IMG/VR virus record: IMGVR_UViG_3300013296_000001
Span: 4,211-68,210 of that record
Source: a virus
Reading direction: 5' to 3' (one strand)
DNA length: 64,000 nt
Of this stretch, positions 130 through 63,086 are shown piece after piece; the stretch's first letter is position 1, and each line of letters begins with the position of its first letter. A program made the translations under genes and the position numbers. The notes beneath the pieces are model-generated. The model did not search any database. It worked only from the letters and a program-made list of their open reading frames with translations, and was not told the origin of the DNA.

Positions 130-2559
130 TTACGGGATAGACACACCCTCTGCCCATGAGTCACCATGATATTCCGCTGAAACTGGCGTCGGTATGCCAA
201 TATCGTTCCCACCCTCTTGCATAAGCCGTCGTACCTCTGCCACGATTGGAGCGTTATACGTGTGCAGTGGCTTCCCGGGTATCACCCTCTTCGGCATGTC
301 CAACACTAGTTCGTCATGTACCTGTAATACGATATGATAGCCACCTTGCCACGTCTTGCCGGCAAACACTTCACCGGCATTGATTCTCTGGAAGAAATCA
401 TGTACTCGGATCATTGCCTTAGTCATCCACCAGCCGGCGGTTCCCTGTACGTGGTAATTGAGAGGTACTGTCGGCTTAATGCGCCCGTAGTCGGTTCTAG
501 TACACATCAGCGGATAACCGCGTTCAGGATCGACAGTCTTATCGGGAATAGTCTCTACGTACCCGTGTTTTTCGGCGAACTCTACCCACTTCTGGTTTAG
601 CTTCTCTTTCTTGGCGAATCGGGCTGCTACTAACTTCTGCGCCCCCGGTCGTCTAGCGGCTTGGTCGGCTGTGCCGCTACCGTCTTCACGGTCTACTGAT
701 CGATATCCCACGGCGAACCCGAAGTTTTTACACCATTGATAGTTTCTAGATCGGTACTTGTCCTTGATGTGGTTCTTGTTATCCATCTGGAACGGTAGTT
801 CTTTAGCCCATATCTCTGGGTAGATGGTGGAGAAGTTCAGTAGGTGTTCACTGCCGAAATAGGGTGGCTCTTTCGACTTCTCGAATAGGTTGATTAACTC
901 TTGTTCGCCTGATTCGTAAGCGGGTATGCGTAGTTCTATGTTCTGGGCATCAAAGCTATACCACTCCCTGCCCGGTGACGGTCCGAATATCCACCGGAGA
1001 CTACGGAGAGAGTATCCCTTGAAGTGGCATTTCTCACACCCTTCTCCCTCACAGTGTTTACACTCAGCCTCTTCCTTTCCGATTTGCTGGCCGTTAGGAT
1101 TACTACATCCGAATCGTGTAGTGGCCGTGCGGGTCGCGTTGAAATTTGGGTAAAGGACGTGCCACTCAGGGTGATAACATTTTTGATCAAATTCTGTAGA
1201 TACTACGCCACATATACGACACAGTTCTACCCCACCGAACTGCGATATGTAGGGGCGGTGCGGCTTACCGGTCGGTAGCTTGCATATATACCGTCCGTAA
1301 CTCTCCATATATGTTAGAGCCGTATTCTTCTTCCTCATCTCCATCATGGATTCTAGAAAGTTAAGTTCACGGCTGCCCTTGTTTAGTATCTCGAAGTAGT
1401 AGGGAATAGCGTTCTTCGCATCGAGTGCCGGGGCGTCTGTCTTTGCCTTCTTATTACGGACTGGTGGTAACTTCATTACATCGAATACGAATGTCCGTAG
1501 ATTCGCGTTTACCGTTTTGGGCATGTCCAGATCATACCCGTACTCGGCTGCTATCTTCTCGCACTCCAGCTTGAGACGTGCTGAGTCTTCTTTGTACTCT
1601 TCCGACAGTTCGTATAGCCGTCCCTCGTGCATTGTGACGCCACGCCGTTCCATTCGATACACAATCTCTGACAGTCGGCGCCGGGCGTCGTACAGCTTCC
1701 ACCGGCCCCGCTCGTGTAACTTCCGTTCAATGACATTCCATAACTGCATTGTCACTTGTGAGTCAACGTCGCTATACTCTTGTAGGAGAATTGGCCAGCG
1801 GTTCAACTCGGCTATCGTTATGTTGCTGTACTTGGCGATGGTATCGGCCCCCATTGCGTCGATCATCGCTATCGGTAGCCAGTAGTCGGCTCGCCAGTTC
1901 TCTTTACCAGCGCTAGGCATTTCGTAGTTGCCTTCAGAGTCCGTCAAGTCTTCTCCGGCGATCATCCATTTGGCCAGTTGGTCTAGCGGACCGTGAGTTT
2001 TGATCAAATTTTTCGATGACTTAGGCGCTCGTCCGAACAACGTCGGCACCGTCTTCTTAGGGGTCGCCTTAGCCGTCTCTAACTTACCTACTCTTATCTT
2101 CGCTTGCTGCACTAACCGACGTGCCTTATGGACTGCCGTTGCCAGTTCGTGTTCATAGGGGCCGATGTCCGTTCCCAGATACATTGCGGCTAGTACCGTA
2201 AGATTCTTCGGCTTGTTGCTCGCCAGGACGTGCGCCGCTAGTAGCGTGTCGTGTGTGATGTCCCACAGCCACCTAGATTCGACTTCGGGAAGGATGGTTG
2301 TCAGTGCAGCCGTGTCAAATTTCCCGTTCTGCGCCACGAACCCTACTCGCCCTCCGTGGTGAGGGTCATTCTGGTAGTCAAAGAAGATGGAGCGGATTTC
2401 GTCTATATCCTCCGAAGGGACTGTTACCTTTCGTGTGTACGGATCAACTTTCCATGTCCACGTTCGTAGGATACCCTCGTCGTTACACGTCGTCAGGTAG
2501 AAAGGGCGGGTTCCGTGGTGATGGTCCGTTCCTGATGTTTCTGTGTCGAACGCAATCAT
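130..2559 (-). CDS. polA: DNA polymerase family A with 3'-5' exonuclease domain
   Basis: N-terminal AFDTETSG exo I motif; TATTRFGCSNPNGQQI; motif A FDAQNIELRI; motif B KNFGFAVGY; motif C LQVHDELV. Confidence 0.95.
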   Translation of the reverse strand: MIAFDTETSGTDHHHGTRPFYLTTCNDEGILRTWTWKVDPYTRKVTVPSEDIDEIRSIFFDYQNDPHHGGRVGFVAQNGKFDTAALTTILPEVESRWLWDITHDTLLAAHVLASNKPKNLTVLAAMYLGTDIGPYEHELATAVHKARRLVQQAKIRVGKLETAKATPKKTVPTLFGRAPKSSKNLIKTHGPLDQLAKWMIAGEDLTDSEGNYEMPSAGKENWRADYWLPIAMIDAMGADTIAKYSNITIAELNRWPILLQEYSDVDSQVTMQLWNVIERKLHERGRWKLYDARRRLSEIVYRMERRGVTMHEGRLYELSEEYKEDSARLKLECEKIAAEYGYDLDMPKTVNANLRTFVFDVMKLPPVRNKKAKTDAPALDAKNAIPYYFEILNKGSRELNFLESMMEMRKKNTALTYMESYGRYICKLPTGKPHRPYISQFGGVELCRICGVVSTEFDQKCYHPEWHVLYPNFNATRTATTRFGCSNPNGQQIGKEEAECKHCEGEGCEKCHFKGYSLRSLRWIFGPSPGREWYSFDAQNIELRIPAYESGEQELINLFEKSKEPPYFGSEHLLNFSTIYPEIWAKELPFQMDNKNHIKDKYRSRNYQWCKNFGFAVGYRSVDREDGSGTADQAARRPGAQKLVAARFAKKEKLNQKWVEFAEKHGYVETIPDKTVDPERGYPLMCTRTDYGRIKPTVPLNYHVQGTAGWWMTKAMIRVHDFFQRINAGEVFAGKTWQGGYHIVLQVHDELVLDMPKRVIPGKPLHTYNAPIVAEVRRLMQEGGNDIGIPTPVSAEYHGDSWAEGVSIP

Positions 2560-5880: not shown

Positions 5881-6819
5881 TTACCCCTTGATGAGTTTGA
5901 CCAGCTTCGCGTAAGTCGGATCGGCGATGTAGCTCGGCAGGGATTTGTTCTTACTCGCCGGAATGCGGAACTTTGTCATAATGACCGTATGCGGCTCGAC
6001 GCGGATACGGTACTCCACACCCGGTAGCCTCTTCTGAATCTTGATCGGCTGTTTGCCCTCCCCCATGCTTTTCGTGACCGTCTCGTACCGTGGCGCCTTG
6101 AACGTCTGAACGGCGTAATCGAGTGCCGGACGTAGCCATGCCGCCATTGACGGGATCACCCCCGGCCCGATCTTCGGCCCGAGTGCGTCCGACTCCGTAA
6201 TGGTGACGATCCCCTCTTCCGACTCCCCCTCTTCCTTCGGCTTGAATATCCTCTCTTGGGTCAGGACGACGATATTTACCCCTACGAGGTTCAACATCTT
6301 CCGTACAATCTCTTTCTCTTGTGCGGCAATCTGCCCCCACTGCTGTTGGCTACAGATGCCCCAACTCTTCTGCGCCGGAGCCTCGTCCATGCCAACGACT
6401 TCACAGAATATGATGTCTTCTAACCCGCTCAAGTGGTCTAATACAATCGTCTTGAAACCCTTGTCTACCACCCCGTCTAGAACGTCGTGGATTTTCTTCG
6501 ATGCGACAACTCCGCTCGACGGCTTGGGAGTGAACTTGCGAATCCGGTTCGCGTTCTCGGGTGTGTCTACCGACTTCAACTCACCCGGGTTCTTACTGCC
6601 GCTGCACTGAATCCATAACAGAGGGTCGGGGAACGTGGCGGCGAACGTCGTCTTGCCTGTTCCACTGTCACCGAACACCAGCACTTTTAGTGACTCGTCC
6701 CTCCCTTCTCCGATGGGAGTGACTTCATCCCATACGCTAGGAGTTTTGATCAAATTTCCGTTGCTCGTCCGTGGCATCACTCGCCCCGGCACTATCCGCT
6801 GTGGTACTGGCGTTGGCAT
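5881..6819 (-). CDS. AAA-family NTP-binding protein (AAA_24/Sak4-like)
   Basis: Walker A VFGDSGTGKTT; Walker B-like TIVLDHLS. Confidence 0.8.
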   Translation of the reverse strand: MPTPVPQRIVPGRVMPRTSNGNLIKTPSVWDEVTPIGEGRDESLKVLVFGDSGTGKTTFAATFPDPLLWIQCSGSKNPGELKSVDTPENANRIRKFTPKPSSGVVASKKIHDVLDGVVDKGFKTIVLDHLSGLEDIIFCEVVGMDEAPAQKSWGICSQQQWGQIAAQEKEIVRKMLNLVGVNIVVLTQERIFKPKEEGESEEGIVTITESDALGPKIGPGVIPSMAAWLRPALDYAVQTFKAPRYETVTKSMGEGKQPIKIQKRLPGVEYRIRVEPHTVIMTKFRIPASKNKSLPSYIADPTYAKLVKLIKG

Positions 6820-7042: not shown

Positions 7043-7491
7043 TTCAGTTCCTCGAAGAGTGTTTCCTGCCGAGTTAGTCCGACTGTAGAACCTTCAACTA
7101 GGTAAGCGTCAAGGTCTGTTGCTCCCCCCTCAGTTAATGGCGAGTATACGCCGAATGGCATCTGCCAGTGTCCAGAATCTCTATCCTCGAAAATGTCATA
7201 CTTTGGGTCTTCCATTGCAAACTGAGCACATTCGTACCATTTACACAACTGTTCTAGCAGTGGGTCAAGTGTCCTCTTGCGAAACAGTGCTATATTCTCT
7301 GGAGAAAAGGCAGTCTCCCATCTGGCAAAGAAATCCGCCGGATTCTCCCTTACGATACCCGCTAACCGCTGTTGAAACTGCTGTGGAGTTTCCTTCTTAC
7401 CCTGATACTGCGCGGGGCGTTTGATGACGTTGTAACGGACTCCTCGAATCGGATGAGCGCCTAGAATTTTGATCAAAGTTTTTTCATCCAT
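7039..7491 (-). CDS. PD-(D/E)XK (Cas4-like) exonuclease, C-terminal fragment
   Basis: IRGVRYNVIKRP continues the nuclease fold; own ATG at 7491 inside the GIY-YIG gene end. Confidence 0.6.
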   Translation of the reverse strand: MDEKTLIKILGAHPIRGVRYNVIKRPAQYQGKKETPQQFQQRLAGIVRENPADFFARWETAFSPENIALFRKRTLDPLLEQLCKWYECAQFAMEDPKYDIFEDRDSGHWQMPFGVYSPLTEGGATDLDAYLVEGSTVGLTRQETLFEELK

Positions 7492-8165: not shown

Positions 8166-8911
8166 GTGTTACCTCCTTTTGATATTTGGCATAGTGCTAC
8201 TAAATAGAGGAGCATTTGTAAGTCCCCGGTCAACTGCCGACTGATGGCTAACCCCTCTATCCGGCTTTTCGTCTTGTGGTCCCCTATCCAGATGCCCGAA
8301 CTTGTAGCGTCTTTCACCAACACAACCTCATCCCACTTGCCACGGAGCCGCACTGTTCGGCCGCTTGGCAGTGTGTACGGCACGTTGAACACATGCTCTT
8401 GCAGTAGGGGAATTACCTTGCGGGAATTTTGATCAAAATTCTGTGTCCAATACTCGACGTAGATCGGGAACATCGTCCGACAGATGCCGTACCAGTTGTT
8501 AATCGCATCTCTGTCGAAGGGATACTGTTTACTTAACCCGTTCATCCCGTAGACGTAATCCTTTAAAGCAATTTCCCACGCTGACTGATCTGTTCCGGTT
8601 ATAGGACGCAATTGCCCGTCCATACTACATTGCTTCTGTGCTAGTGCCTCTTCACAGATGTGCCACATATTGCCGAATTCCATCCGTGCATTGAACGACG
8701 GTGCCGGTGCCCACCCTTCGAGATACTGCACTCGAAATCGCTCTCGACAGACGATGAATCGTGAGAGCATCGAGAACGTAATACCGCCGTTCTCCTCGTT
8801 CGACTCCGGCCCTTTCCATAGTGGCGGACGCTTGACGAACTGGTTCTTAATTCCCATCCCCTTTAACGTCTCTGAGACCGAGGGCTTTCTTGCCTTCATT
8901 GGTGTACTCAC
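8162..8911 (-). CDS. PD-(D/E)XK (Cas4-like) exonuclease, N-terminal fragment
   Basis: TFSMLSRFIVCRERF...GNMWH...LRGKWDEV...IGDHKTK...LQMLLY. Confidence 0.8.
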   Translation of the reverse strand: MSTPMKARKPSVSETLKGMGIKNQFVKRPPLWKGPESNEENGGITFSMLSRFIVCRERFRVQYLEGWAPAPSFNARMEFGNMWHICEEALAQKQCSMDGQLRPITGTDQSAWEIALKDYVYGMNGLSKQYPFDRDAINNWYGICRTMFPIYVEYWTQNFDQNSRKVIPLLQEHVFNVPYTLPSGRTVRLRGKWDEVVLVKDATSSGIWIGDHKTKSRIEGLAISRQLTGDLQMLLYLVALCQISKGGNT

Positions 8912-11406: not shown

Positions 11407-11620
11407 CTAATAAGGAAAGTACGACTAGACAGGAATTCGGCGGATTTCCAGAATTTTGATCAAATTTCTGGATTCCGGCAAGAAACGTGCTTCCCGCCGT
11501 GGGGAAAGTATTTTCCGAATTCCGTCCGTATCGGCCATTTTTCGTTAGACGCGGACCCGTCTGGAGCGTATACCAGTCTGTGCGGCGGGAAATTTTGATC
11601 AAAATTCTGGAGGGTCTATC

Positions 11621-18848: not shown

Positions 18849-19652
18849 TTACCCCTTCTCTCCCTCGAATTGGTCCCGTCCTTCCTTCCTGAGCCTCTGC
18901 CTCTTCTCCCAGATATTGCCGACCATCGCCGCCCGCTTGCCCGATTCTGGTGGCACTGTGCCGTCAGCGTAGGGGGTTGCTCGTCCGCACCAGTTGGCGC
19001 CAGCCGGTCCCATGTGCAGCACTTCAAACGGGGGGCGTACCTTTCTCTCCCGTGGCCACTTCGCCTGAAAGAAGCTATCTGCCCCTCCGGCCGTTTTCCA
19101 AGTAATGTCGTGCCACGGGGGCGGACCTAGAACGGGATCGCTGGCGTGGAATATCTGAGTGTACCCTGCCCACTCCGCAATATTCTTATGAATCGGGTAC
19201 TTGCTCCATTCCGACTCGGGTGGAATTTGATCAAAATTCTGTGGTACGGTGTGGTACATTCGTCTAAGTGGGGAGTACAACATTCCCGGCAAGAACGCAC
19301 ATCCGTTGATGACAAACTCGCAGATATTAGGTCGACCAGGAATGAATACCTCTAGATTTTTCGGCCACAATACATCAGCATCCATGACGCATAGCCACCC
19401 CTTACGTCCTATGCAGTCTAGCCCGAATTCCATCGCCGGCCACTTCGCAAACACGTCTCCCTTGCGAGCGTAGAACAAGTCCGTAACAATCACATCCGCA
19501 TTGTTCGCTTCGCAGATTGGCTTGACATTCGGGGCGTCAGCCGTGGATGTGATGACCGTTACTGTATCGAAGTGCGATCTATTCCAAGGTAACGACAATT
19601 TCAGGCAGTCCGTGTAGTCTACGGACACGAGCACGGCTCTAAGTCCCATCAC
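18849..19652 (-). CDS. Glycosyltransferase (GT-A fold)
   Basis: WLCVMDADV DXD motif; C-terminal FEVLHMG. Confidence 0.7.
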   Translation of the reverse strand: MMGLRAVLVSVDYTDCLKLSLPWNRSHFDTVTVITSTADAPNVKPICEANNADVIVTDLFYARKGDVFAKWPAMEFGLDCIGRKGWLCVMDADVLWPKNLEVFIPGRPNICEFVINGCAFLPGMLYSPLRRMYHTVPQNFDQIPPESEWSKYPIHKNIAEWAGYTQIFHASDPVLGPPPWHDITWKTAGGADSFFQAKWPRERKVRPPFEVLHMGPAGANWCGRATPYADGTVPPESGKRAAMVGNIWEKRQRLRKEGRDQFEGEKG

Positions 19653-43555: not shown

Positions 43556-44416
43556 TTATGGTTGGTAGTTCGGTGGAATCGTCGGGTCTTGCGGGTCTTC
43601 GATTACAGCTTCAATGATGCAACAGTCCGGTTGGTCGCCACCGCCGAATAGGTGGTCCTCGTCAATGTAGACACGTCCGTTGCCGAACGGTCCCCAACTG
43701 CTGTCCCATGAGTTGTGATCGTCCAGCACCCATCGGCCGTCCGGCAGCTTCACTACCCCGTCGGCGTGATTACAATGGTTGCCCGGTCCTCGGTCGTGTC
43801 CAGCCACCCCGTACCGATCGAATGACTGGAAGCTACGTCCGACTTGATAGCCGTACACCGGAATCATCGGCTTGGGCATCAGGAGAGCCGTGATAATCTC
43901 GTCATAGCTGTTCACTTGAAACGCACGAGACAGCTTGAACCGAGCCGCCTCAGCCTTTGCCGCAGACGGCATCCGGCTTTGGTAGATCGGGTCTTGTCCA
44001 ACTGTGGCGAACGTGCAACAACCGACGTTTAGCCCCGCGTCGAGTCCGTCCGAGATAATCGCGCCATTGTCGCTGTTGCCGTTAATGAGCGAGTAAAACC
44101 ACGCCGGGGAGAGTAGTACGGGCTTCATACCGGCGAGGACACGGGCTTTCGACATGCCCATTGCCCACCCGTTACCTACACAACTCCCGTGGCCATTTTG
44201 ATCAAAAGTTCCGAACGCTGCGAACACTGCCCGACGGTTCACTTCAAACCAGTCGGCCCGGTGCATGACGCTGAAGTGATCGGAGAACTTCGGCAGTGCC
44301 TTAAACTTCCCCGGTGTGTCGGGCTTTGAGGCTAGATACCTCTTCTGCCCGTTCACTTCGATGTAGTCAAGGTCTTTCGACGGGTCGTATACAATTCCGC
44401 TTGTTCCGTTGCTCAT
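43556..44416 (-). CDS. Papain-like (C1) cysteine peptidase
   Basis: DQNGHGSCVG (Gln and catalytic Cys), GNHC (His), NSWDSSWG (Asn). Confidence 0.88.
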   Translation of the reverse strand: MSNGTSGIVYDPSKDLDYIEVNGQKRYLASKPDTPGKFKALPKFSDHFSVMHRADWFEVNRRAVFAAFGTFDQNGHGSCVGNGWAMGMSKARVLAGMKPVLLSPAWFYSLINGNSDNGAIISDGLDAGLNVGCCTFATVGQDPIYQSRMPSAAKAEAARFKLSRAFQVNSYDEIITALLMPKPMIPVYGYQVGRSFQSFDRYGVAGHDRGPGNHCNHADGVVKLPDGRWVLDDHNSWDSSWGPFGNGRVYIDEDHLFGGGDQPDCCIIEAVIEDPQDPTIPPNYQP

Positions 44417-46000: not shown

Positions 46001-46052
46001 TCGTCCTTCCGCGCTAGGGCGAATTTTGATCAAAATTTCAAGACAGTTATAG

Positions 46053-50854: not shown

Positions 50855-53233
50855 TTACTTACGGACACGCTTCAAGTCATGTTCGTCGTGGTTCTTCACG
50901 ATTTCGGAGTAGTCCAGCTCCGGCGTGACCATTGCCGCAACGTCGTCGTCAGCGTTCTCGACGTACTCAACCTCTTCCTCATCGTTCTTACGTCGATTCG
51001 TTACACCACCGCCACCGCCGTAGTTCGTAATGCGGTTCGTGACGGTCTTCTCGGCATCGTCGTCATCGTCGTCATCATCGTCGTCAGGGTTGATCTTGAT
51101 GCGGGCGTTGTTCGTCTGGCGCCCACTCTTAGAGTCGTCTTGCACGGCGATCAACAACTCTTCCAGCGATTCGAGCGACACACCGATTTCGTCGTGCCGC
51201 TTCAGCTTGTTGGCGATCAGCGTCCGCTTCGCCTTGTTCGTCGTGACCTTCGCCACCTTCTGCAACTGCTTCACAACGTCGTCAAGACGCTGCTTCTCTT
51301 GCTTCTGAGCGTTCTTCACCAGTCGCTTGACACTCTTCGGAATGTCGTCGCGCTGGAGGAAATCTTCTAGCGACTCCTCGTTCTTTGCCATCATGTCATC
51401 CTCATCAGGTTCGTCGGAGGTACAAGTAGCAGACTTCTTTTTCTTCTTCTTGGCGGTCGATTCGCTCTGCTCACCCTTCAGCGCGTTCGCCGTTACCGTC
51501 GTCAGTTCTTCCAGGTCCATTTCATCGGCGTCGTCAATCGACTCGCGGACGGCGTTCGCAATCGCCTCGTCTTCCATGTGACGGCGTGCTACACGGATCA
51601 GGTTCTTCAGTCGGGTGTCATCCATACTGTTAAGGATGTCTTCGCCATCCTGCCAACACTCACAATTGTTTGTGAGATACTGAACCATCTTTTGCTTGCC
51701 GGTCATAGCAGAGCCTTTCTCTGGAAGAAAAGGAGTAGTCGCGGAATCACGGTTAGTTACCATCTCAGAATTTTGATCAAAATTTCGTGTCTTCGATCGG
51801 CGAGATAACTTGCGAGCATTCCCTACCATCCGCAGACGACGCATTGAGTGAGCCGTCGCCATATGAGCCATTGCGGCATCCCTATGGGCTTGATGTGCCA
51901 GTGCGTGATGAACGGCGCCGCTGCCTGACATGGCAGTGTCTAGTTCCTCGTGACGCTGTGCTGCCTTTGCGTGTGCCTTTGCTGCCGCTTCGTGGTGCTC
52001 TGGTGTCAGCCCGGCGTATCCGACCCCTGCCGTTGCCCGACGTGCTAACTTGCGGGCTGTTGACGCCAGCTTTTCGGCCTTGTCGTCGGGGTGCTTCTCT
52101 AGCGCAGTGCTGCTGGCGAACATCGCCTTTGTGCTGGCGTTCGACGCACGCAACCGGTTGTTGGCGATGTCTTCTCTCAATGATTGGGAGACACCACCAG
52201 AGGCGCCAGACTTCGCGCCCTTTTGCGTGAGGGAGCCGCCACCGCTGGCACAGTGGTTGCCCTTTTGGAATCCACCGGCGCCAATACCACAGTTGCCGCC
52301 ACTGCCACCGATTGACATGGATGATGCAGACGGGCCGACAACGGTGTGTATGGAATTTTTGATCAAATTTCTTATCAGGCGCTTCCAGAATCCCACTTTC
52401 GCGCCCTCGTTTGACGTGTGTCCTTCTCCGCATTTGGCGCCGAACATGCCACGCTGAGCCTTTGTGAGTGGGTGCCCGTGAACACTGCCATCTTTCAAGA
52501 TGCGGCATGCTTTTTGGCTAGACATGGATAACTTAACTGACGGTTTCTTCTTTGTATTGTTGATGTGAACACCACATCCGTCACGCAGCGAACAAGCGCC
52601 CTTACTGTCGGGCAGAATTGCCAAGTGATCGGGCTTGTAATCGCGGGCTATGGCGACGTATTCCCGTCCGTTGGGAGAGACACCCCGGCCATTTGCTGCC
52701 GGCACGTTGCGTGTGAATAGTCCTGTTGACAGTTCGATCGGTTCGCCTTTGAGGAGACGGAGAAGGATCGTAGGACGACCATTTTTGATCAAAATTTCGT
52801 CCTGTGCCTTCACTAACTTCTCGTCAAACCATGCTTGCCCTTGCAGACTGCCGGTCTGGTTGTTGATCCGTACCCGATAGACGTGTCCTAACCCGTGCCG
52901 TTCCAGTGTACCAGGGTCGCGAGCACTGACATTCAATCCTGTCGAATCGTCCGTCGGGTGGTCACACGTCAACGGCATCCCATTCCAGGCATCGACGTTA
53001 CGCGCTACCTCTTCTTTCGGGTAGTACAGCGGCCCCTTACTACCGTTCAGTACCCCCGGCACCAGCATTGTCACGGGGACAACGAGGTAATCCCGTCCGT
53101 GGTGTTTCACACGGCGGGCTTGCGTGTTCAACGTCAATCGAATTCGCTTCGCCCGGTTGAGCAGAACGAAATCGAGAGCGATGGATGGAGACGACTTAGT
53201 AGGTGTAGAGTGTCGTGTAGCCATTCCCGCCAT
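50855..53233 (-). CDS. DUF2213-like prohead protease/scaffold with inserts
   Basis: VPGVLNG...LYYP...WNGMPLTCDHP...IELSTGL...PDHLAILP...GACS...GCG; acidic scaffold-like C-terminus. Confidence 0.8.
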   Translation of the reverse strand: MAGMATRHSTPTKSSPSIALDFVLLNRAKRIRLTLNTQARRVKHHGRDYLVVPVTMLVPGVLNGSKGPLYYPKEEVARNVDAWNGMPLTCDHPTDDSTGLNVSARDPGTLERHGLGHVYRVRINNQTGSLQGQAWFDEKLVKAQDEILIKNGRPTILLRLLKGEPIELSTGLFTRNVPAANGRGVSPNGREYVAIARDYKPDHLAILPDSKGACSLRDGCGVHINNTKKKPSVKLSMSSQKACRILKDGSVHGHPLTKAQRGMFGAKCGEGHTSNEGAKVGFWKRLIRNLIKNSIHTVVGPSASSMSIGGSGGNCGIGAGGFQKGNHCASGGGSLTQKGAKSGASGGVSQSLREDIANNRLRASNASTKAMFASSTALEKHPDDKAEKLASTARKLARRATAGVGYAGLTPEHHEAAAKAHAKAAQRHEELDTAMSGSGAVHHALAHQAHRDAAMAHMATAHSMRRLRMVGNARKLSRRSKTRNFDQNSEMVTNRDSATTPFLPEKGSAMTGKQKMVQYLTNNCECWQDGEDILNSMDDTRLKNLIRVARRHMEDEAIANAVRESIDDADEMDLEELTTVTANALKGEQSESTAKKKKKKSATCTSDEPDEDDMMAKNEESLEDFLQRDDIPKSVKRLVKNAQKQEKQRLDDVVKQLQKVAKVTTNKAKRTLIANKLKRHDEIGVSLESLEELLIAVQDDSKSGRQTNNARIKINPDDDDDDDDDDAEKTVTNRITNYGGGGGVTNRRKNDEEEVEYVENADDDVAAMVTPELDYSEIVKNHDEHDLKRVRK

Positions 53234-53619: not shown

Positions 53620-56600
53620 CTACTTGCTCGACTTCGTGAGTAACTTCCGAATAAACTCGACGTGTGCCGGTGTTCGTCCTGTCAAGTGTGATACATAACT
53701 GTCAATAATCAGAGGGTTGTTACCGAGATACCCACTGCTCCCCGTATGATTCGCTGGGTTTGTCTCCACTACCTTATACCCCTCTGTCGTCTTCACGATA
53801 TCCGGCGCGTAAATCTGGCCGTGCTTCTCCGAATGTGGCAACCGGTCAACTGCCTGCCGTGCTGCCTCTGCCATTGCTCTAGTGTCGGCATTGTCGAACA
53901 CAACCGGCAAGTGATCCCCCTTCAACCATGTTGAGTAGGGCACGACTTCCGCCTTGCCATTACGTGTGACGACGTGTACCCGCCCCTCTTGTCCGTACTT
54001 GATCGTGACTCCGGCTGCTCGGTCTGCCTCACTGATGCCGACGACGTTAAACGCCGGCTGAACCATATAATCCTTACCGCCCCCCGCTAGTGCAGCACCA
54101 TGTTCGTGCTGTGCCGCTTCGTGTGCTTTGTCACCCCAATGCCGTACTTCACCGTCGATCGTCTTATTGTACTTGTCAGTGCCGAACAAGTACGTATCTC
54201 CACTCGTGTGCTTCAGTCCGACCACGTTGTTAGACTCGTCTCGGTGGAGTGAGAATCCGTACTTGGCAACACCAGCACCGGCATTCCAGATATTGTTCTG
54301 CGCCTCCCCTTGCATCTGTCGGGCACGCTGCGGGAAGTAGATACCATACCCTGCCGCGGCATCGTCGCCGTATGCCTTGACAATCCACTTATCCTTTCCG
54401 TAGATTGAATCAAACTTCGCCGTCACGTCTGGTGTCAAGTGCGTTACCTTCTTACCAGCAACCTTGCTCACGTCCTCGCTCGTTTCTAGTCCCGGCAACC
54501 GCTTCGACTCTTCGAGCTTATCCCTGAGTGTCGGATCGGATACCGTGAACGACCCTTTGCGCCGGGGGTGTACGTCCTTCGCCTCCGTGCCGCCATATTT
54601 GGGGCTGGCGGACGACACCAACGGCTGTGGCGACGACGGATCAATCCTATCCGTCTGGTGGGACATCGTGATGCCGTGCCGGTTCAAGTACGACTCACAG
54701 AACTGCGCGAGATGCCGGCCGTGATCGCCGTGGTCGAATGCGTCTTTGTCCCACCCCCCTTCATACTCGACGCTCTTTTTCGTGTGCTTGCCGGTCCCCA
54801 CACCACCGACGGCGGCTAGAGTCGCCTCAACGCCGTTACCTTCGACGTGATTGCGCAAGTGCCCTAACCAGTCGGCAACTTGGTGTTCTCCCTTGCTACG
54901 GAAGAACGACTCAAATCGATCGATCTTCTTACGTACCTCGTCAACGTGGGCCGGCTGACGTTCGACAGCCTTTGCCACTACTTTTGTGGGAAAGCCTTGA
55001 GGAGACGTTTTACCAGTGGGTCCACCGTCACTTCCCCCGCTTCGATCTGCCGGCGTGTCACCGGATCGCGTAGGATGTCCCGCCACTTGTCCGCTTGTGC
55101 TTGTAGGTCTTTCTTGAGTTGGTTTGCCTCTTCCGCTGTCACTTCGTCCGCCATGAGATTGCTCCTTCTTCTTAGGGTTCTCGATCGTGTGTTGCTTCGT
55201 GTGGAATCGTGTCGTTAGAATGTGTCGGTGCAGCGCCGATACTGCGCTCGATTTCTTCTGCTGTGGAGTTACAGGATTCACAGATTGCTGAGACTGCACC
55301 TTCGCGTCTCGCTTCTCCATGTGCGTATTGATCGCCTTCATAACGTGTGGATTACCGGCGACGACACGACCACCTTTAATGTAGACGTGGTGTCCTGAAT
55401 CCGTGGTGATCCATCGCCCGCCTGTGAGATGCGAAAACTTCCCTTGACCACCACTCTTGTCGTTGGCGACTACGAAATTTTGATCAAAATTCTGGTTGTC
55501 GATCTGCGAGCGTGATACATCTCTCTTGCCAGCATACCAACTCCTGCCCGTCGCCCTCTGCCCCGGCGCTGGTGCCCATTCGCATCGGCAGTGAGTGTGC
55601 CGGGGGATCAACCCCCGCGCACTGTTCACCGTGAACACCTTACCAGCCAGCGGAGCACACTTCTTACACGGTTGCCCCGTCGTGTGGTACTCGACGTTAG
55701 CCATGATCTGCTCAACGCCGAGCGATTCCATCGTGTCTAACTGCCCTTCGGCGTGTACGCGCACCATCTCTGTGCGAGCGATCGCAAGTGCCTTCTGCTT
55801 GCTAATCTCTAGTTGCTTACGTAGTTGGTTTGCTACCGTTTCTGGTTTGGTGCCGTTCTTAACACCCCTCTCGACAATTTTGATCAAAATTGCACCCATC
55901 TCTCCCGTGATACCCTGAATCTGGTCGAGTGCAACGGCGCTATTCGTTGTGAGGCTATTACTCTCTATGTTCGCAATGAACTGCTCTCTTCGACCGTTGT
56001 AGTGATCGACACTCTCTCCTACCTTCTGGGGTGCCGACCGCTGGTAAGCGTTATGTACACCCTTCATGTAGCCTTGACGTGTGTATTTTCTCCAGAGAGA
56101 TTCCCCGCACGGTCCTTCTCTGGAAGAAAGAGTATACCGTAGCCAGTCCCGAACGGTATCAGCGACGTTGGCCACTAAATTTTGATCAAAATTGCTGTTG
56201 CCGGTTACTGAGCCACCGAACGCAACGTAGAACCTGTCGCCGTTCTCTTTCTGATCGAAGATAACCCCGTCGTGTCCGTGTTCTTTCGCCTTTTTAATGA
56301 TGGGGTTTTCAAACGAGGGATCGGAAAATTGTCGCTGCGTTGCTTCGACGTGTAGGGGATTCTTGAGTTTGACCTTGCCAGCGATTATGCTACCCGATCC
56401 CCCTACAGTTTCTCCGAATGCTTCGGCGTAGTCCTTCTCTCGTGACCAGAACACATCTCCTGCTGCCTTTAACCCTGTTCGGTTAAATCGGTGTGCGTCT
56501 TCTGCAATCGGCTTACCTGTTAGTTCGCCAATCTTGACGTGTGAACCGTAGTCGGCGTGACCAGTGCCCCCATCTTTTGCACACGTATTCCCCTTCTGGA

Positions 56601-57828
56601 AACCCCCCTCTCCAATACCGCAGTTCTGACCCGTTGTCTTGTCGGTGTTACCTACCAAGTTAGGTGGCGTTGGGTTCTCCGATAGCACTCTCGTTGCCAG
56701 GACGATGGCACTAGCGCCGTCTTGTGTCTGCTGAAGTGCCGCAGCAAATACGGCACAACGCCAGTCCAGTACGTCGTTAGGCAATGGGGCAGTGCGTGGT
56801 GTCTTGCTGTTAGAATTTTGATCAAAAATCAGGTTAGCGATTAACCCCGCATTATCCTTGTCACTGTTGCCCACCGGCACCGTTGCCACCGGCACGTTCG
56901 TTCGTAGCTTCCCCTTTGTGTAGTACGTGCCTTTCTTCTGACCGACGCCGACGACGGAACTCCACCAACTTGCGACACGACTACCGAACCCCGTCTTGAC
57001 GGACTTCGCCGACTGGATGGCGTGCGATGTGGCGTCCTTCACTAACCCTTTAGCGGCTCGATACGTGGCGCGAGGGTCTTTCGCCGTCGAGTACAGTAGA
57101 TAACCAGCGGTTGCGGGTGGCACCATTGATGCGATACCGAGTCCTCCGGCACCCAGACCAGTTGTGTGCAGTCCGAGTTGAACCGGCTTAAGCAACGCCA
57201 CGTCAAGAGACGATAAGACTCCCCGTAATCGTCTCGACTCTTCATCACTCGCGCCCCTCTCTTTTGACACACGTTCGGCTAACTTCTGCCCGACTGTCCA
57301 ACTGACGAACGCGGCCTGAGTGCCGGCGCGTGTGACGTAGTACGTCGCCGTGGCCGCCTTCTGCATCGGACCGGGCAGCTTCGATACAGCGTGTACGATG
57401 CCGTCTCTCACCCACTCTTTCGCCGCATGTTCGATGTGTCCAACTTTCGCCCCGGCCTTGATGATCGCGGGGACGACACCACTGACAACAGCGTGTCCGG
57501 CTGTTGCTGCGAACCGTCCTATCCGATCCCGTGTGTACGTGCGGTTGCCGATGACGGCATAGAGAGACTTATCATCGTCGTTGCCGTTATTGCCATCGCC
57601 ATTGAGTGCCGCAAATGTCCAACTGTTCTCCAGTATGTTCAGTGCTAAGTCATACGTGATTTGCTCGTGTTGCTGTGACTGAGCATTCTCGACAGCAGAC
57701 GGCAACAACGTCAGTACGTCGTTTGCTACCTTATCGAATCGTCGTGTCAACTCGGCTTGCATCTGACGGCGTAGTGTGGCCGTCCGTGTGGGGTCAATGC
57801 GTAGGGGATTACGTCGGTGGATTGGCAT
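53620..57828 (-). CDS. MuF (Mu gpF/SPP1 gp7) minor head protein fused to ART-like and ATP-grasp-like domains
   Basis: RIDPTRT N-terminus; ALAIARTE...CKKC...IPRHTHCRC; VFWS...KLKNPL...GHDGVIF...YVAF; WIVKAY...YMVQP...EGRVH...PDI...VVETN. Confidence 0.8.
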   Translation of the reverse strand: MPIHRRNPLRIDPTRTATLRRQMQAELTRRFDKVANDVLTLLPSAVENAQSQQHEQITYDLALNILENSWTFAALNGDGNNGNDDDKSLYAVIGNRTYTRDRIGRFAATAGHAVVSGVVPAIIKAGAKVGHIEHAAKEWVRDGIVHAVSKLPGPMQKAATATYYVTRAGTQAAFVSWTVGQKLAERVSKERGASDEESRRLRGVLSSLDVALLKPVQLGLHTTGLGAGGLGIASMVPPATAGYLLYSTAKDPRATYRAAKGLVKDATSHAIQSAKSVKTGFGSRVASWWSSVVGVGQKKGTYYTKGKLRTNVPVATVPVGNSDKDNAGLIANLIFDQNSNSKTPRTAPLPNDVLDWRCAVFAAALQQTQDGASAIVLATRVLSENPTPPNLVGNTDKTTGQNCGIGEGGFQKGNTCAKDGGTGHADYGSHVKIGELTGKPIAEDAHRFNRTGLKAAGDVFWSREKDYAEAFGETVGGSGSIIAGKVKLKNPLHVEATQRQFSDPSFENPIIKKAKEHGHDGVIFDQKENGDRFYVAFGGSVTGNSNFDQNLVANVADTVRDWLRYTLSSREGPCGESLWRKYTRQGYMKGVHNAYQRSAPQKVGESVDHYNGRREQFIANIESNSLTTNSAVALDQIQGITGEMGAILIKIVERGVKNGTKPETVANQLRKQLEISKQKALAIARTEMVRVHAEGQLDTMESLGVEQIMANVEYHTTGQPCKKCAPLAGKVFTVNSARGLIPRHTHCRCEWAPAPGQRATGRSWYAGKRDVSRSQIDNQNFDQNFVVANDKSGGQGKFSHLTGGRWITTDSGHHVYIKGGRVVAGNPHVMKAINTHMEKRDAKVQSQQSVNPVTPQQKKSSAVSALHRHILTTRFHTKQHTIENPKKKEQSHGGRSDSGRGKPTQERPTSTSGQVAGHPTRSGDTPADRSGGSDGGPTGKTSPQGFPTKVVAKAVERQPAHVDEVRKKIDRFESFFRSKGEHQVADWLGHLRNHVEGNGVEATLAAVGGVGTGKHTKKSVEYEGGWDKDAFDHGDHGRHLAQFCESYLNRHGITMSHQTDRIDPSSPQPLVSSASPKYGGTEAKDVHPRRKGSFTVSDPTLRDKLEESKRLPGLETSEDVSKVAGKKVTHLTPDVTAKFDSIYGKDKWIVKAYGDDAAAGYGIYFPQRARQMQGEAQNNIWNAGAGVAKYGFSLHRDESNNVVGLKHTSGDTYLFGTDKYNKTIDGEVRHWGDKAHEAAQHEHGAALAGGGKDYMVQPAFNVVGISEADRAAGVTIKYGQEGRVHVVTRNGKAEVVPYSTWLKGDHLPVVFDNADTRAMAEAARQAVDRLPHSEKHGQIYAPDIVKTTEGYKVVETNPANHTGSSGYLGNNPLIIDSYVSHLTGRTPAHVEFIRKLLTKSSK

Positions 57829-57889: not shown

Positions 57890-60001
57890 CTACTTCTTAC
57901 CGCTCCAGAACCAGTTAGCGAGCTTCCGTGAGAAGTTGCCTAGCGTCGTGTTAGTGACTAGTGGCACGTCTTCAGTCTCAACCTCTAATACTGGTGTTGC
58001 CACTACAACCGGCTTGACCTTCCGTTCCTTGTTCCGCACAGGCTTAGCTGGTTTCGGCATCGGTGGACCTTGTGCGATCGTCTTGCCCGTCTGTGGGTGT
58101 ACTAGACTTGTGCCGGGCTTCATCTGGACTGGTGGCGGTTCCGGCGGTGGTGCCTGGGGGTCGGGTGCCAACCCCTCGTCAATCATCGTCTGCTGTTTCT
58201 CCATGTCCTTCTCTTGCATACCCTGTGCGTGCTCCTCACCAGCCGCTAGAATCGCCTCTGCCTCATCGTCGTCGTACCCTAGCTCTCGTGTGAGGAATTC
58301 GTGCGGCGGGAACCACGACTGAATATCTGCTTGCGTGTACTGTGCCATTGCCGCCGTGCGAGTCTGCGCGAGTGTGCCTTGCTGAGCGCGTGTCATGCTG
58401 TCCATGTCCGGCCACTTGATACGCAGTCCCGTCGGTCGTGGTAGCACTCCCAGCATGACAAGCCGAGTGATAAACGGAATAATGATGCCCGGTGTGATGT
58501 ACACGTTCTGCCTGTTGCGCAGTTCGTCGTTCCACTGGCTATCGTCTTGAGATGATGCTAGTTCGCCCCGTTCACTCCCCTTGAATATGCGAATCGGGAT
58601 GCCGAGCTTGATACAGATGGCCTCTACCAGAATGTTGATGAACGGTGTGGGGTCTGTTACCGTCGGAGCAATCGACTTGAGCGAGCCGTTCTCTAACCAC
58701 CCTGTCCGCTGTAGCGAATTCTGGATACGCCAGAAGAAATCCTTCATTCCCTGTGCGTTGACGGGTGGCTTGGTGCCGTCTGGCGTCGTGAACTCCCCGA
58801 TCAGTATCGTCATGCACGTCTTCCAGTACCCCTCCGCACTGGCGTACAGTGGCTTGCGTGCCGACAGAATCTCCCTCAGTACGGGTTCACACCGCGGCTT
58901 GGCGAGGATTTCACTGGCGTCGGCCGTGTGATACCAGTCCGCAACGTGTTGCACTCGTGTCCAGTGGACGTTATACGTACCTGTCGGCCCACTAGTAACA
59001 CTGCCACTACGACCGTACTCATTGAATGTGACACGGTATGATGTGGGTTGTCCGTACCGCGGTGACGTAATGTTCGTTTCGTATGACACCACTTCGGCCA
59101 TCGACTCGGGCAGGACACGGAGGTACATCAAGCGACGATTTTTGATCAAATTTGCGTTGGTGCTGAACGTGTACCGAGGGTACAACCCCCGATCATCATA
59201 TTTACCCGTGTACTGCGCGTCGGTGCCGTCTCGTGACCCACCGTCCTTCGGACGTGTTTTATCTCGCCCTTCTTTGATAGTCGCCTTGTCACCCGGCATA
59301 CTGTTCAGTTCTTCCACCCCTTCGGCCGGATCACTAAACGGCAGTCCGTCGTCAATGCCGAAGAATATGACGCCGTACTGACCGATGCCGCTGAGAATGT
59401 CCGCTCTCAGTAGGTACGACCAGATGGGACTACCTTGCTCCTGATCGAACATTGAATCAGAGTCACTGACATCGTTGGGCTTACCGTTCTGACCTTTGCC
59501 GCTCTTCTTAGCCGTACCATTCGTCCCGTTGATGAATCCACTATTCGGCAGTAGCGACCGGCCGAGTGTTGACCATGCCTTCTCAAACTCCGTCTGCTCC
59601 TCACCGTCCTCGTTCTCTGTTACTTCCGGCGTCACCTGGAAGCACTGTTTCGGCAGCACTTCTACGACTCTGGCGGCGATTGATGAACCGTCGTACAATT
59701 CCTTGTAATACGATGAGTCTTGAAACCCCTTCGGAAAATGACACTCGCCGTCGAGATCGCGCTTCTCGTCGTTGAGTGCGGAGAACAGTTCTCGACGTGA
59801 CAGATTGATGTTTGCTGTAATCTCTCTCAGTGCAAACAGCTTCTCCAGTTCGATCTCTCTCAGTTCACCGAGTCCGTTCAGTGAGAGTGGCATCTCAACG
59901 GCGCCACTCGTTGATACACTGCCGTTATTGACGTGTACAGTAGTTGGTGTTAGATCGCCGAGTCCGGCGTATACACTCCCGTCGGTTACTTCGTGCGGCA
60001 T
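57890..60001 (-). CDS. Portal protein (DUF1073-like)
   Basis: YKELYDGSSIAARVVE...YGQPTSY...VHWTRVQH...IPIRIFKGSERGELASSQD. Confidence 0.85.
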   Translation of the reverse strand: MPHEVTDGSVYAGLGDLTPTTVHVNNGSVSTSGAVEMPLSLNGLGELREIELEKLFALREITANINLSRRELFSALNDEKRDLDGECHFPKGFQDSSYYKELYDGSSIAARVVEVLPKQCFQVTPEVTENEDGEEQTEFEKAWSTLGRSLLPNSGFINGTNGTAKKSGKGQNGKPNDVSDSDSMFDQEQGSPIWSYLLRADILSGIGQYGVIFFGIDDGLPFSDPAEGVEELNSMPGDKATIKEGRDKTRPKDGGSRDGTDAQYTGKYDDRGLYPRYTFSTNANLIKNRRLMYLRVLPESMAEVVSYETNITSPRYGQPTSYRVTFNEYGRSGSVTSGPTGTYNVHWTRVQHVADWYHTADASEILAKPRCEPVLREILSARKPLYASAEGYWKTCMTILIGEFTTPDGTKPPVNAQGMKDFFWRIQNSLQRTGWLENGSLKSIAPTVTDPTPFINILVEAICIKLGIPIRIFKGSERGELASSQDDSQWNDELRNRQNVYITPGIIIPFITRLVMLGVLPRPTGLRIKWPDMDSMTRAQQGTLAQTRTAAMAQYTQADIQSWFPPHEFLTRELGYDDDEAEAILAAGEEHAQGMQEKDMEKQQTMIDEGLAPDPQAPPPEPPPVQMKPGTSLVHPQTGKTIAQGPPMPKPAKPVRNKERKVKPVVVATPVLEVETEDVPLVTNTTLGNFSRKLANWFWSGKK

Positions 60002-61232: not shown

Positions 61233-63086
61233 TTATCCTCCCACTCCGATGTACGCTGGTTGATGTTTGCCGATCATGCCGTGAATCGCTAGCACGAGTG
61301 CGTCGGCGTCGTCTGGGCTACGTCCTATAATCTCTTCTAGTGACTTCTGGTATACTGACTTACTCTTCGTCCGGTCCATGCTCTTCTTCCGCTTCGGGGG
61401 GAGCCACACTTGCCCTTCTTCGTTGTACAATATGGGGATCGGTGCGAGTTGACGGCGTAGCTCGGGGTCAGGGGGGAGTGCGAATCCGTAATAGGGTTCA
61501 CTACTACCTGCTACAGAATTTTGATCAAATTTTCCAACACTCTTATCCGGCCCTAATCCATACTGTCTTGAGGGGTCTAGTAGTTCGCGCAAGTCGTAAT
61601 ACATCTCCACACGCTTGCTACTGAATGTGTACCGTGTCTCTCGGTCGTCCTCGCTCTCCGTCCGGTTGAGCCTACCACCGGCCTTCGGCAACTGTGATGC
61701 GGCACCACCGAATCCGATCGTCTGAACGTCGTATCCTTTCGCACGGAGCCGGTCCGCCGCTTGCTTGCCGCCACCGCCCCGGTCGAAGAACACCATTTCG
61801 GGTGGCACTCGCAATCGCTCCATGAATGCAATGGCTTCTCTCGGAATGCACTCCGTATCCGGTGTCTTCTTGCTCGTCTTTTCGATCACTCCCCACTCAT
61901 CGACTGCTACCATTGACGTACTGTCGCCACCTTCTGCGGGGTCAATGCCGATTGCCTTCGCACGTCGCCGTAGTCCTCGCAACATCGAATAGCGACGTTC
62001 GGCACGGTTGAGCCAGTCGGGCGGGAAGAGAAGTGTCTCGGCACCTTCCCAAAATTCGGCGTCTAAGCTAACACACTGACGTATCTTGTCCCACATCGCA
62101 CGACGCTTCTCATAGTCGTTGTATGGTAGGACACCGGGGATCAGTACCTCACCTGTTGGTATCTTCCCCGCCTTGATCTGTGCTAGACCTAGCTGTACGT
62201 TCGGACTGTCCTCTGCTGTGATCTTGATTACCTTGCGGTAGTACCCCAACGCAATCGAATGAGAGGATTCGGTAGAGTGTCGTAAGTTGGTAGCATTTTG
62301 GGCATTGTGCGATTGATCCTGTACTGATCCATGTGAACTCATGCCCACATTTGGTACACTCTGCGACCATACATCACCGTTGGTAGAATTTTGATCAAAA
62401 TTTCCGTTACCATTCAGACCACTACTACCCCGTACCTTCCGTGGGATGTCACCCCCCTTGTCCTTGTCACCGTCACCCTTCACCGAGCGATAGAAGAAAT
62501 TTGTTGTCGGGTAGGCGTTCCCAATTGCTAGAATGCGACGTGCCCATGTCGTGCCGACTGTATATGTATGGTCATCAATGCCTGATGCCTCATCACACAC
62601 CATCATTGTTTTTGGTATGCCATCTCCCGTCTCTGCTACGTGGTGCCCTAGCATCCCTTCGCCACGGGCCGCAACCCTGGCGATCACATACGATGTGGGA
62701 CACACTTGCTTGGTATCGAAGTCAACAATTTTGCGTAAATGCAGATGGTTACAAACGAGTGGACCCCCTCGTGTCGATTCGAGAGGGTATTTGCACGTCT
62801 GGATAAACCGTCGTATTTCGCCCCATAAAACACTCTCTAGTTGCTCGTGATCGACGGACGTGGTGACAATACGACATGGTGTACGGGTGAGGAAGAACCA
62901 TATAACGGCATACCCTGCAACAAAGTCTTTCCCGACCATGTTCGCAGCAGGTACGATAGTCTCATCGTTTAAGTGTATAGAGTAGAGGATATCTCTTTGC
63001 TTCCTATAGAAAACTATCGAGGGCCATAGAAATCTGGCAAATTGAATAGGGTCTCTTACCTCTGCAATTAAGTTTTTGACCGACAT
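61233..63086 (-). CDS. terL: Terminase large subunit
   Basis: AANMVGKD Walker A, VCDEASGI Walker B, AIGNA, IGIDPAEGGD, SPDDADALVLA. Confidence 0.92.
   Translation of the reverse strand: MSVKNLIAEVRDPIQFARFLWPSIVFYRKQRDILYSIHLNDETIVPAANMVGKDFVAGYAVIWFFLTRTPCRIVTTSVDHEQLESVLWGEIRRFIQTCKYPLESTRGGPLVCNHLHLRKIVDFDTKQVCPTSYVIARVAARGEGMLGHHVAETGDGIPKTMMVCDEASGIDDHTYTVGTTWARRILAIGNAYPTTNFFYRSVKGDGDKDKGGDIPRKVRGSSGLNGNGNFDQNSTNGDVWSQSVPNVGMSSHGSVQDQSHNAQNATNLRHSTESSHSIALGYYRKVIKITAEDSPNVQLGLAQIKAGKIPTGEVLIPGVLPYNDYEKRRAMWDKIRQCVSLDAEFWEGAETLLFPPDWLNRAERRYSMLRGLRRRAKAIGIDPAEGGDSTSMVAVDEWGVIEKTSKKTPDTECIPREAIAFMERLRVPPEMVFFDRGGGGKQAADRLRAKGYDVQTIGFGGAASQLPKAGGRLNRTESEDDRETRYTFSSKRVEMYYDLRELLDPSRQYGLGPDKSVGKFDQNSVAGSSEPYYGFALPPDPELRRQLAPIPILYNEEGQVWLPPKRKKSMDRTKSKSVYQKSLEEIIGRSPDDADALVLAIHGMIGKHQPAYIGVGG

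Follow-up and report, generated by a model that had tools for sequence, protein, structure and literature searches.

The 64,000-nucleotide stretch analysed here (the window; positions 4,211 to 68,210 of IMG/VR virus record IMGVR_UViG_3300013296_000001) is part of a 75,155-bp contig with a tailed-phage genome, and carries a 10-bp palindrome, TTTGATCAAA, that recurs about once per kilobase both between genes and inside them, where it is translated as the peptides FDQ or LIK. The combined analyses of codon usage, alignments and spacing indicate that selection probably acts on the DNA and not on the peptide: the positions of the palindrome persist over long divergence, its centre has changed in concert between related phages, its spacing is evened and the pattern points to recognition at the level of double-stranded DNA. 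A preliminary description of the window had proposed a DNA signal under selection so strong that protein sequence is reshaped, a proposal that four independent lines of evidence support: the codon choice, the conservation in a sister phage, the loops that host the sites and the spacing.

The ends of the contig overlap by 123 bp, indicating a closed circular and complete assembly. The window contains 66 exact copies of TTTGATCAAA where 0.07 are expected and the largest number obtained in dinucleotide-preserving shuffles was 2; the whole 75,155-bp genome contains 78, approximately 1 per kb. Symmetrised base frequencies revealed a full consensus longer than the 10-bp core, the 20-bp dyad RRAATTTTGATCAAAATTYY. 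Farther out than position -5/+5 of the core the base composition is that of the background, conservation being limited to the 20 bp, and no traits of MITE/REP-like elements (a longer element, conserved flanks or target duplications) were found. Core and arms together thus form a dyad of 16-20 bp, a size that accommodates the 14-16-bp palindromic site of parS/NBS-type loading sites.

The core is perfect in 78/78 copies. A single core with one mismatch was found in 75 kb, which is the chance level, no core with a different central dinucleotide is present in the 75-kb genome, and the mismatch counts against the 20-mer follow a bimodal distribution. The arms are looser inside genes than between them (1.90 vs 1.08 mismatches, P=0.007) around the invariant core. 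Degenerate intragenic arms combined with a fixed core mark a trade-off between the site and coding. Near-copies of the 20-mer that have no perfect core number only two, with 4 mismatches each, at window 34622-34641 and at genome 70061-70080, the latter 1,851 bp beyond the window end; one of the two is a left half-site, GAATTTTTGATC, inside the motif-free tape-measure gene.

Placement between and within genes

Open reading frames (ORFs) were called on the locally dominant strand and the counts for the window use ORFs of at least 80 aa. A few short ORFs beyond the window (genome 1,700-3,100, probably on the plus strand) were called wrongly under this rule, so that the genome-wide number of intragenic copies, 29 to 33 of 78, is approximate. 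DNA outside gene interiors amounts to 16% of the genome and houses 49 of the 78 copies (P=3e-20). The window has 25 intragenic copies, 15 read as FDQ and 10 as LIK, and an additional LIK copy lies in a doubtful 50-aa ORF. The preliminary description had counted 22, of which the 10 LIK copies stand while the 12 FDQ copies were three too few. The in-frame reading of the 20-mer is NFDQN(S/F), or ILIKI/NLIKN. The third frame, TT-TGA-TCA-AA, is the same on both strands and was never found inside an ORF, consistent with the stop that had been predicted for it. Since one of the three frames contains TGA, two usable frames remain, (N)FDQ(N) or (I/N)LIK(I/N). A feature that had gone unremarked is that the TGA of the palindrome is itself the stop codon of 8 genes, 7 in the window plus a gene for a Dam methyltransferase outside it. 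The window copies that overlap stop codons or lie in spacers are as follows.

7468..7477: stop codon of the GIY-YIG endonuclease gene (7473-8165, -)
9296, 10604, 11594, 13238, 14826 and 60091: further copies whose TGA overlaps a stop codon
119..63610: the remaining ~33 window copies, in short spacers, typically 2-30 nt past a stop or 25-30 nt ahead of a start

Nine ORFs seemingly start at the TTG of a palindrome. An ATG or GTG is located 12-33 nt downstream in each, often behind a GGAG-like site, and these copies are therefore assigned to leader regions.

The coefficient of variation (CV) of the gaps between copies was 0.574, compared with 0.98 for uniform placement (20,000 simulations, P<5e-5). 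A gap-aware null that kept the intergenic and intragenic numbers gave a CV of 0.89 (P<5e-5), and a null in which intergenic copies were fixed and intragenic copies alone were shuffled gave 0.80 (P<5e-5); no simulation of the 20,000 in any null attained 0.574. Since the observed evenness exceeds every null, the results indicate that intragenic copies are placed so as to plug the holes left by long genes. PolA and TerL carry 2 copies each, the portal 1, MuF 4 and a 792-aa head protein 3.

The abundance of copies just past stop codons or in 5' leaders is also what would be expected of an RNA-level element, a short AU-rich hairpin with a GAUC loop that would mark gene borders for transcript processing, stability or termination. 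The folding energy of idealised 24-mers is -7 to -8 kcal/mol, and the sister phage described below keeps the stem and changes the loop, both in accord with a hairpin. Natural sites, however, reach only -1.2 to -4.7 kcal/mol, a value that shuffles equal at one site, and have no U-tract; the stems are invariant in sequence and without compensatory changes; the coding strand of the sister has the loop in both orientations; and one third of the copies lie deep in long ORFs where they even out the spacing of the DNA. An RNA-level role is for these reasons considered very unlikely. An intrinsic terminator was rejected because the stem is AU-rich and not GC-rich, folding is weak and there is no U-run.

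Codon choice and the sister phage

FDQ is the most over-represented tripeptide in the predicted proteome (20 vs 1.4 expected), an excess of ~14-fold that is built from non-preferred codons. It is coded TTTGATCAA in 16/20 cases against a joint expectation of 4.7%, TTT, GAT and CAA being minor codons used at 30, 35 and 45%. LIK is coded TTGATCAAA in 12/17 cases (expected 2.3%), and both tripeptides are at chance level in other codons. Codon choice at these sites is thus constrained to the palindrome, as the preliminary description implied. Selection for the FDQ and LIK peptides themselves would agree with the [L/F]DQ found at the same position in homologues of a peptidase-like protein, but the excess of both tripeptides is wholly motif-coded, residues vary at retained DNA sites (I to T or V; ILIK to FDQI) and most copies are non-coding. 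Selection at the protein level was rejected on the codon statistics and on the residue changes at kept sites. An assembly or adapter artefact was likewise rejected because frames are open through every intragenic copy and because an independent sample has a related motif at orthologous places. The likelihood that either accounts for the repeat is negligible.

The independent sample, SRR22868756, contains a sister phage (contigs L002 and L094) that has the closest homologues of TerL (73% identity) and PolA (72%). Codon alignments of shared genes gave 63-67% nucleotide identity with the window. The sister carries 24 copies in 22.8 kb of a related motif, GAAATTTG[AC/GT/AT]CAAATTTC, with the core TTTG[AC/GT/AT]CAAA. 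The centre is asymmetric in 20 copies (14 GACC and 6 GGTC on the coding strand) and GATC in 4; a GC centre was never seen in the window phage or the sister. Each arm is one T/A pair shorter in the sister (AATTTG) than in the window (AATTTTG). The occurrence of both centre orientations on the coding strand argues for double-strand recognition over strand-specific reading.

The location of sites was compared for 12 window copies in PolA, TerL, portal, MuF and the 792-aa protein. Six of the 12 are found at the identical alignment column in the sister, one is displaced by 11 nt in the other frame, one is displaced by 15 codons within the same TerL insertion and 4 are present only in the window. 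Residues at shared sites follow the centre (NLIK vs NLTK or NLVK, an I to T or V change). Relics altered by point mutation were found both ways, AAATTTGGTCCA in the sister at the place of a window copy and TTTGATTCAATC in the window at the place of a sister copy.

Five other relatives (L001, L003, L004, L005 and L095) have ~50-59% identity in TerL or the peptidase and a similar genome size (71 kb for L095), and k-mer counts revealed no iterated palindrome in any of them. Those with ~50% TerL identity are without most of the loops that host the motif. TerL of the window phage is 617 aa compared with ~530 aa in homologues, and MuF is 1402 aa compared with 790-930 aa. L003 (~50% TerL identity) has 18 copies of a non-palindromic 8-mer, CCGTACCG/CGGTACGG, in 21.6 kb with unconserved flanks; this 8-mer was rejected as a counterpart of the motif, having no extended context and no dyad. 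Megablast of window 1-20,000 against a phage collection returned no match, and the exact 18-mer was absent from IMG/VR. Metagenome contigs and 185,579 species genomes yielded single chance matches to the 18-mer only, which indicates that the palindrome is not a host-wide repeat in any genome searched. A full-text literature search for the motif returned only unrelated barcodes and primers.

The change of centre coincides with a difference in gene content. The window phage encodes a PF05869 Dam (E=1.5e-27; L092:3370-3831, -, outside the window), the gene that ends on a palindrome TGA, together with a 493-aa N6_N4 type II-like methyltransferase (L093:3409-4890, -, outside the window), and the sister has an unrelated 105-aa ORF at the Dam position (L094:6687-7004). 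By analogy with the iterated palindromes of cyanobacteria, HIP1 (GCGATCGC) and alternates, which have cognate methyltransferases (Elhai 2015, PMC4390886), there is a lead that the GATC centre and Dam may go together. The likeness lies in a repeated palindrome centred on GATC, a putatively matching methyltransferase gene, and a relative with a different centre that is without that gene at the syntenic place. The difference is that HIP1 is 8 bp, GC-rich and located in cellular genomes, whereas the phage element is 20 bp, AT-rich, evenly spaced and mostly intergenic.

A model of repair drive has been proposed for the cyanobacterial repeats (PMC4390886). Applied to the phage, Dam methylation of GATC coupled to biased mismatch repair would perfect near-sites and the motif would accumulate with no function at each site. 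The two methyltransferases, the GATC core centre, the unrelated ORF at the Dam position of a sister with mostly GACC/GGTC centres and the near absence of one-mismatch cores all fit such a drive. However, chance alone would supply only ~2 one-mismatch 10-mers per 75 kb, and drive on near-sites therefore cannot make 78 copies of a 20-bp motif. The model also leaves the even spacing, the intergenic preference and the conserved arms outside GATC unexplained; 248 of the 314 GATC in the window are outside the palindrome and without its context; and the GATC specificity of Dam is taken from its family. Repair drive is consequently a rather improbable explanation.

Proteins that host the palindrome

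The intragenic copies of the window are listed below with the coordinates and strand of the gene.

1182..1191: FDQ in PolA (130-2559, -), aa 457-459, EFDQK; Cys-rich insertion missing from most homologues
1999..2008: LIK in PolA, aa 184-187, NLIK; variable-length loop, 0-55 aa among homologues
6745..6754: LIK in AAA_24 ATPase (5881-6858, -), aa 35, N-terminal of the Pfam domain (56-225)
8428..8437: FDQ in PD-(D/E)XK nuclease fragment (8162-8911, -), aa 159, NFDQNS
11455..11464: FDQ in putative 86-aa ORF (11338-11598, +), ORF call
19226..19235: FDQ in 267-aa ORF (18849-19652, -), aa 140, ORF call
25222..25231: LIK in glycosyltransferase-like ORF (24730-25518, -), aa 96
25659..25668: LIK in 360-aa ORF (25515-26597, -), aa 310
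29146..29155: FDQ in 337-aa ORF (28208-29221, -), aa 23, KFDQNS
29705..29714: LIK in 162-aa ORF (29528-30016, -), aa 101
37587..37596: FDQ in 215-aa ORF (37045-37692, -), aa 33
38268..38277: FDQ in 248-aa ORF (37696-38442, -), aa 56
43419..43428: FDQ in 137-aa ORF (43132-43545, -), aa 40
44197..44206: FDQ in Cys-peptidase-like protein (43556-44416, -), aa 71-73, six residues ahead of invariant Cys79
46025..46034: LIK in putative 84-aa ORF (45824-46078, -), ORF call
51772..51781: FDQ in 792-aa head-module protein (50855-53233, -), aa 485; window-only
52358..52367: LIK in 792-aa protein, aa 289, NLIK; NLVK at the same column in the sister
52784..52793: LIK in 792-aa protein, aa 147, ILIK; 8-aa insertion relative to L004 and L005
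55479..55488: FDQ in MuF (53620-57828, -), aa 781; same column in the sister; 10-aa insertion relative to L005
55879..55888: LIK in MuF, aa 647, ILIKI, at the start of the Phage_Mu_F domain
56181..56190: FDQ in MuF, aa 547; same column in the sister; 1-2-codon indels at the flanks
56817..56826: FDQ in MuF, aa 335; window-only, 8-codon insertion relative to the sister
59141..59150: LIK in portal (57890-60043, -), aa 298, NLIK; NLTK at the same column in the sister
61520..61529: FDQ in TerL (61233-63086, -), aa 520; ~20-aa loop missing from distant homologues
62390..62399: FDQ in TerL, aa 230; ~65-aa low-complexity insertion, only in the window phage and the sister

The putative 86-aa ORF terminates on the TGA of the next copy, at 11594, and the 267-aa ORF had no family match. 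The peptides quoted in the preliminary description were all recovered: GLNGNGNFDQNSTNG and GKFDQNSVAG in TerL, KSSKNLIKTHG and EFDQKC in PolA, GSVTGNSNFDQNL in MuF, KTRNFDQNSE in the 792-aa protein and TFDQNGHGSC in the peptidase-like protein.

Homologues could be compared for 14 intragenic copies, and the earlier impression that copies often sit in inserted loops was substantiated, ~10 of the 14 being located in lineage-specific insertions or variable loops and linkers. Seven lie in insertions or variable-length loops without counterpart in motif-free homologues (both copies in TerL, both in PolA, aa 147 of the 792-aa protein, and aa 781 and 335 of MuF), and three in variable stretches with small indels (the portal, MuF aa 547 and PD-(D/E)XK copies). 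The portal copy is in a variable linker with indels in every homologue. The PD-(D/E)XK copy reads NFDQNSRKVI in place of HPDVxxRT of the family, with a 2-aa insertion and only the D kept. Two of the 14 are recodings by substitution only in conserved segments (the peptidase [L/F]DQ and MuF aa 647), and two, aa 289 and 485 of the 792-aa protein, were compared with the sister alone.

Mapping onto AlphaFold models, which were built on alignments, placed 4/4 copies of TerL and PolA in coil with a predicted local distance difference test (pLDDT) score below 50, in agreement with the loop locations; the rest of PolA was modelled with confidence (mean pLDDT 80). The PolA FDQ copy is inside the pLDDT<50 segment 455-459 and has FDQ at the same column in the sister, and the PolA LIK copy is inside segment 169-187 with NLTK at the same column. 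The TerL copy at aa 520 is inside segment 508-532, where the sister is without the motif, and that at aa 230 is inside segment 221-278, with the sister copy (FGQI) 15 codons upstream.

Co-option of a conserved DQ ahead of the presumed catalytic Cys of the peptidase-like protein, as had been suggested, is upheld by alignment. The consensus in the family reads ILDQxxHGSC. Among 17 homologues Q73, C79 and H214 never vary, and they are candidates for the oxyanion-hole Gln, the catalytic Cys and the downstream His of a papain-like (clan CA) cysteine peptidase. In L095, a relative without the motif, FDQ is coded TTCGATCAG (TTC-GAT-CAG), which indicates that the site is a recoding of pre-existing residues. 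The window protein had no Pfam match even at E=1. The homologue in L095 (L095:10001-11896) is 631 aa, with two stretches matching the query and faint intein/LAGLIDADG Pfam matches, and is probably an intein-containing version of the same peptidase. The MuF site at aa 647 is in a conserved helix (K[LIM][VA][KR] in homologues; KLVKI, coded AAACTCGTCAAG, in the sister). The helix is without indels, hence this site was created by substitutions only. At aa 147 of the 792-aa protein the sister motif is 11 nt off and in the other frame, the window reading DE-ILIK-NGRPTIL and the sister IE-FDQI-LLQNNRPTIL. At aa 485 the sister has the one-mismatch relic AAATTTGGTCCA and a 4-codon gap.

The preliminary description had also raised a mechanism that seeds the palindrome by insertion. 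Short templated insertions or gene conversion could write the palindrome actively, the intragenic copies being scars that survived in tolerant loops with no function required at each site. Indels within 6 codons, in the comparison of window and sister, accompany 9 of 14 sites where 4.9 are expected (P=0.025), although indel enrichment is expected in loops anyway. The window-only MuF copy at 56817 lies within an 8-codon insertion relative to the sister, indels of 1-4 codons adjoin copies in the portal, MuF and the 792-aa protein, every core is perfect with no decayed copies, and the proteins of the lineage (TerL, MuF) are consistently longer than their homologues. These features agree with a writing mechanism, whereas nothing is conserved past 20 bp, there are no target duplications, the 20-bp unit is not a multiple of three, the peptidase and MuF helix copies arose in conserved segments by substitution only, both phages contain point-changed relics and the even spacing is left unexplained. 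Sites have moreover persisted in the same columns through ~35% nucleotide divergence, for which purifying selection is needed whatever created the copies. Seeding by insertion thus finds support in the indels and in one insertion, is not required by the data and, as the explanation of the pattern, is unlikely.

A putative reader and comparison with known systems

The palindrome is most probably a cis-acting DNA element that is recognised by a phage-encoded, sequence-specific protein with twofold symmetry. The phage would need the core, exact in all 10 bp, at intervals of roughly 1 kb over its entire genome; most copies could be accommodated in short spacers, and genes longer than the tolerated spacing would have to carry one inside. 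Selection would keep intragenic copies where the protein tolerates them, in inserted or disordered loops, in variable linkers or at a near-identical pre-existing peptide, and the TGA frame is used as well, to terminate 8 genes. The site may be read by a dimeric protein that binds or processes DNA. The perfect dyad, the all-or-none core, the occurrence of both orientations, the conserved places and the concerted change of centre, together with the change in T/A run length, fit a symmetric, highly specific and co-evolving reader of double-stranded DNA. The identity of the reader and its action are much less certain; the action could be that of a ParB-type loading or coating protein, could involve signals for priming or nicking, or could be linked to methylation via the central GATC and Dam.

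Several results weigh against this interpretation. That no degenerate copies exist at all is unusual for sites of ordinary transcription factors and would also fit copy-paste or repair drive. No copy is present in four genes of 2.0-2.7 kb (tape measure, SGNH tail protein, a 652-aa protein and a primase-like protein) and the largest gap is 2,746 bp, which shows that the spacing rule is loose. The sister comparison covers ~30% of the sister genome, and the evidence from homologues covers only half of the intragenic copies. The 652-aa early protein had no match in Pfam, NCBIfam, PADLOC or PDB sequence searches, and its one weak ParB/Srx lead, from the Atlas (score 0.87), is to a cluster with ParB_N in 24% of members. 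Searches for a reader in Pfam, NCBIfam, PADLOC, PHROGs and PDB sequences gave nothing decisive for the 652-aa protein, a 194-aa helix-turn-helix-like protein or other proteins of no known family, and because no reader protein was identified the molecular function is inferred.

A more far-reaching version, which we put forward tentatively, is that the palindrome serves as genome-wide punctuation. A phage protein as exacting as a restriction enzyme would meet the 20-bp dyad approximately every kb, for example for loading of a protein that spreads on or coats the DNA, or for priming or nicking of both strands. Its preferred centre (AT vs AC/GT) would co-evolve, possibly coupled to gain or loss of Dam, and the need to house sites would have driven the extra loops in essential proteins, among them terminase, polymerase, portal and MuF.

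By analogy, the phage palindrome is best placed with the repeats of Cluster O mycobacteriophages and with bacterial uptake sequences. Cluster O genomes carry a 17-bp dyad, 5'-TGTTCGGNNNCCGAACA, in 34 copies over ~70 kb with invariant arms (Cresawn et al. 2015, PMC4351075). Intergenic copies are numerous and around a third are coding, the centre occurs in both orientations and there is no tie to promoters; the function is unknown and dimeric DNA-binding proteins are suspected (PMC4351075). Both phages thus have >30 dispersed inverted repeats with invariant arms and a substantial intragenic minority, a likeness of class and not of homologous family. The sequences are unrelated (TGTTCGGNNNCCGAACA vs RRAATTTTGATCAAAATTYY), and the palindrome described here is twice as dense (78 in 75 kb), evenly spread and invariant in its centre, in contrast to the concentration of Cluster O repeats at one genome end. 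No effect on reading frames or protein loops and no concerted change between relatives is reported in the Cluster O paper (PMC4351075).

The uptake signal sequences and DNA uptake sequences of Haemophilus and Neisseria occur ~1 per kb, approximately double the tripeptides they encode, are restricted in frame and are located at poorly conserved residues (Findlay and Redfield 2009, PMC2817400). Here too a DNA signal inflates encoded tripeptides in certain frames and at tolerant residues, the difference being that theirs are asymmetric uptake signals of a host genome and the present element is a palindrome confined to the phage, with a 14-fold FDQ excess in non-preferred codons. The stoperators of Cluster A mycobacteriophages are asymmetric, oriented with transcription and bound by the monomeric immunity repressor of temperate phages (PMC9283540). 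They resemble the palindrome in having dozens of sites across a phage genome, mostly in short intergenic spaces, theirs protein-bound and those of the present phage putatively so, and differ in that the palindrome is a perfect dyad without orientation, with sister centres 14 to 6 on the coding strand. No integrase or repressor was found among the scanned proteins.

Compared with these systems, the phage adds a much stronger peptide effect and a strict evenness. Its palindrome is used in every frame, as two peptides and as a stop, one conserved site has switched frame, and the sites have changed in concert between sister phages. The palindrome is an unusually clean natural case in which a non-coding DNA requirement overrides protein sequence, 10 bases being kept in essential enzymes while residues, and even the frame, vary; proteins gained disordered loops at its sites. 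It offers an experimental handle on dispersed invariant phage palindromes of the Cluster O kind, for recoding of intragenic copies separates DNA from protein function, and the changed centre of the sister is a natural specificity swap that could reveal the reader protein. Annotation of such phages should expect peptides, stops and insertions imposed by the motif.

The genome also encodes a primase-like protein, PolA, ThyX, nucleases, several HNH genes and one GIY-YIG homing endonuclease gene. The PD-(D/E)XK protein (8162-8911) is 249 aa compared with 350-430 aa in nearly all homologues and is directly followed by the GIY-YIG/NUMOD3 gene (7473-8165, -), an arrangement that fits a split gene. 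A 254-aa protein at window 18038-18802 (+) has a TIGR02996 repeat-companion domain (E=1.7e-6, just under the curated cut-off), a domain described from Gemmata, which would hint at a planctomycete host. The region 19649-27786 (-) encodes two radical SAM, two SAM methyltransferase-like and two glycosyltransferase-like proteins, one UDP-glucose/GDP-mannose dehydrogenase-like protein and a protein with an M10-like metallopeptidase motif, a block that could function in modification of DNA, the capsid or the host surface.

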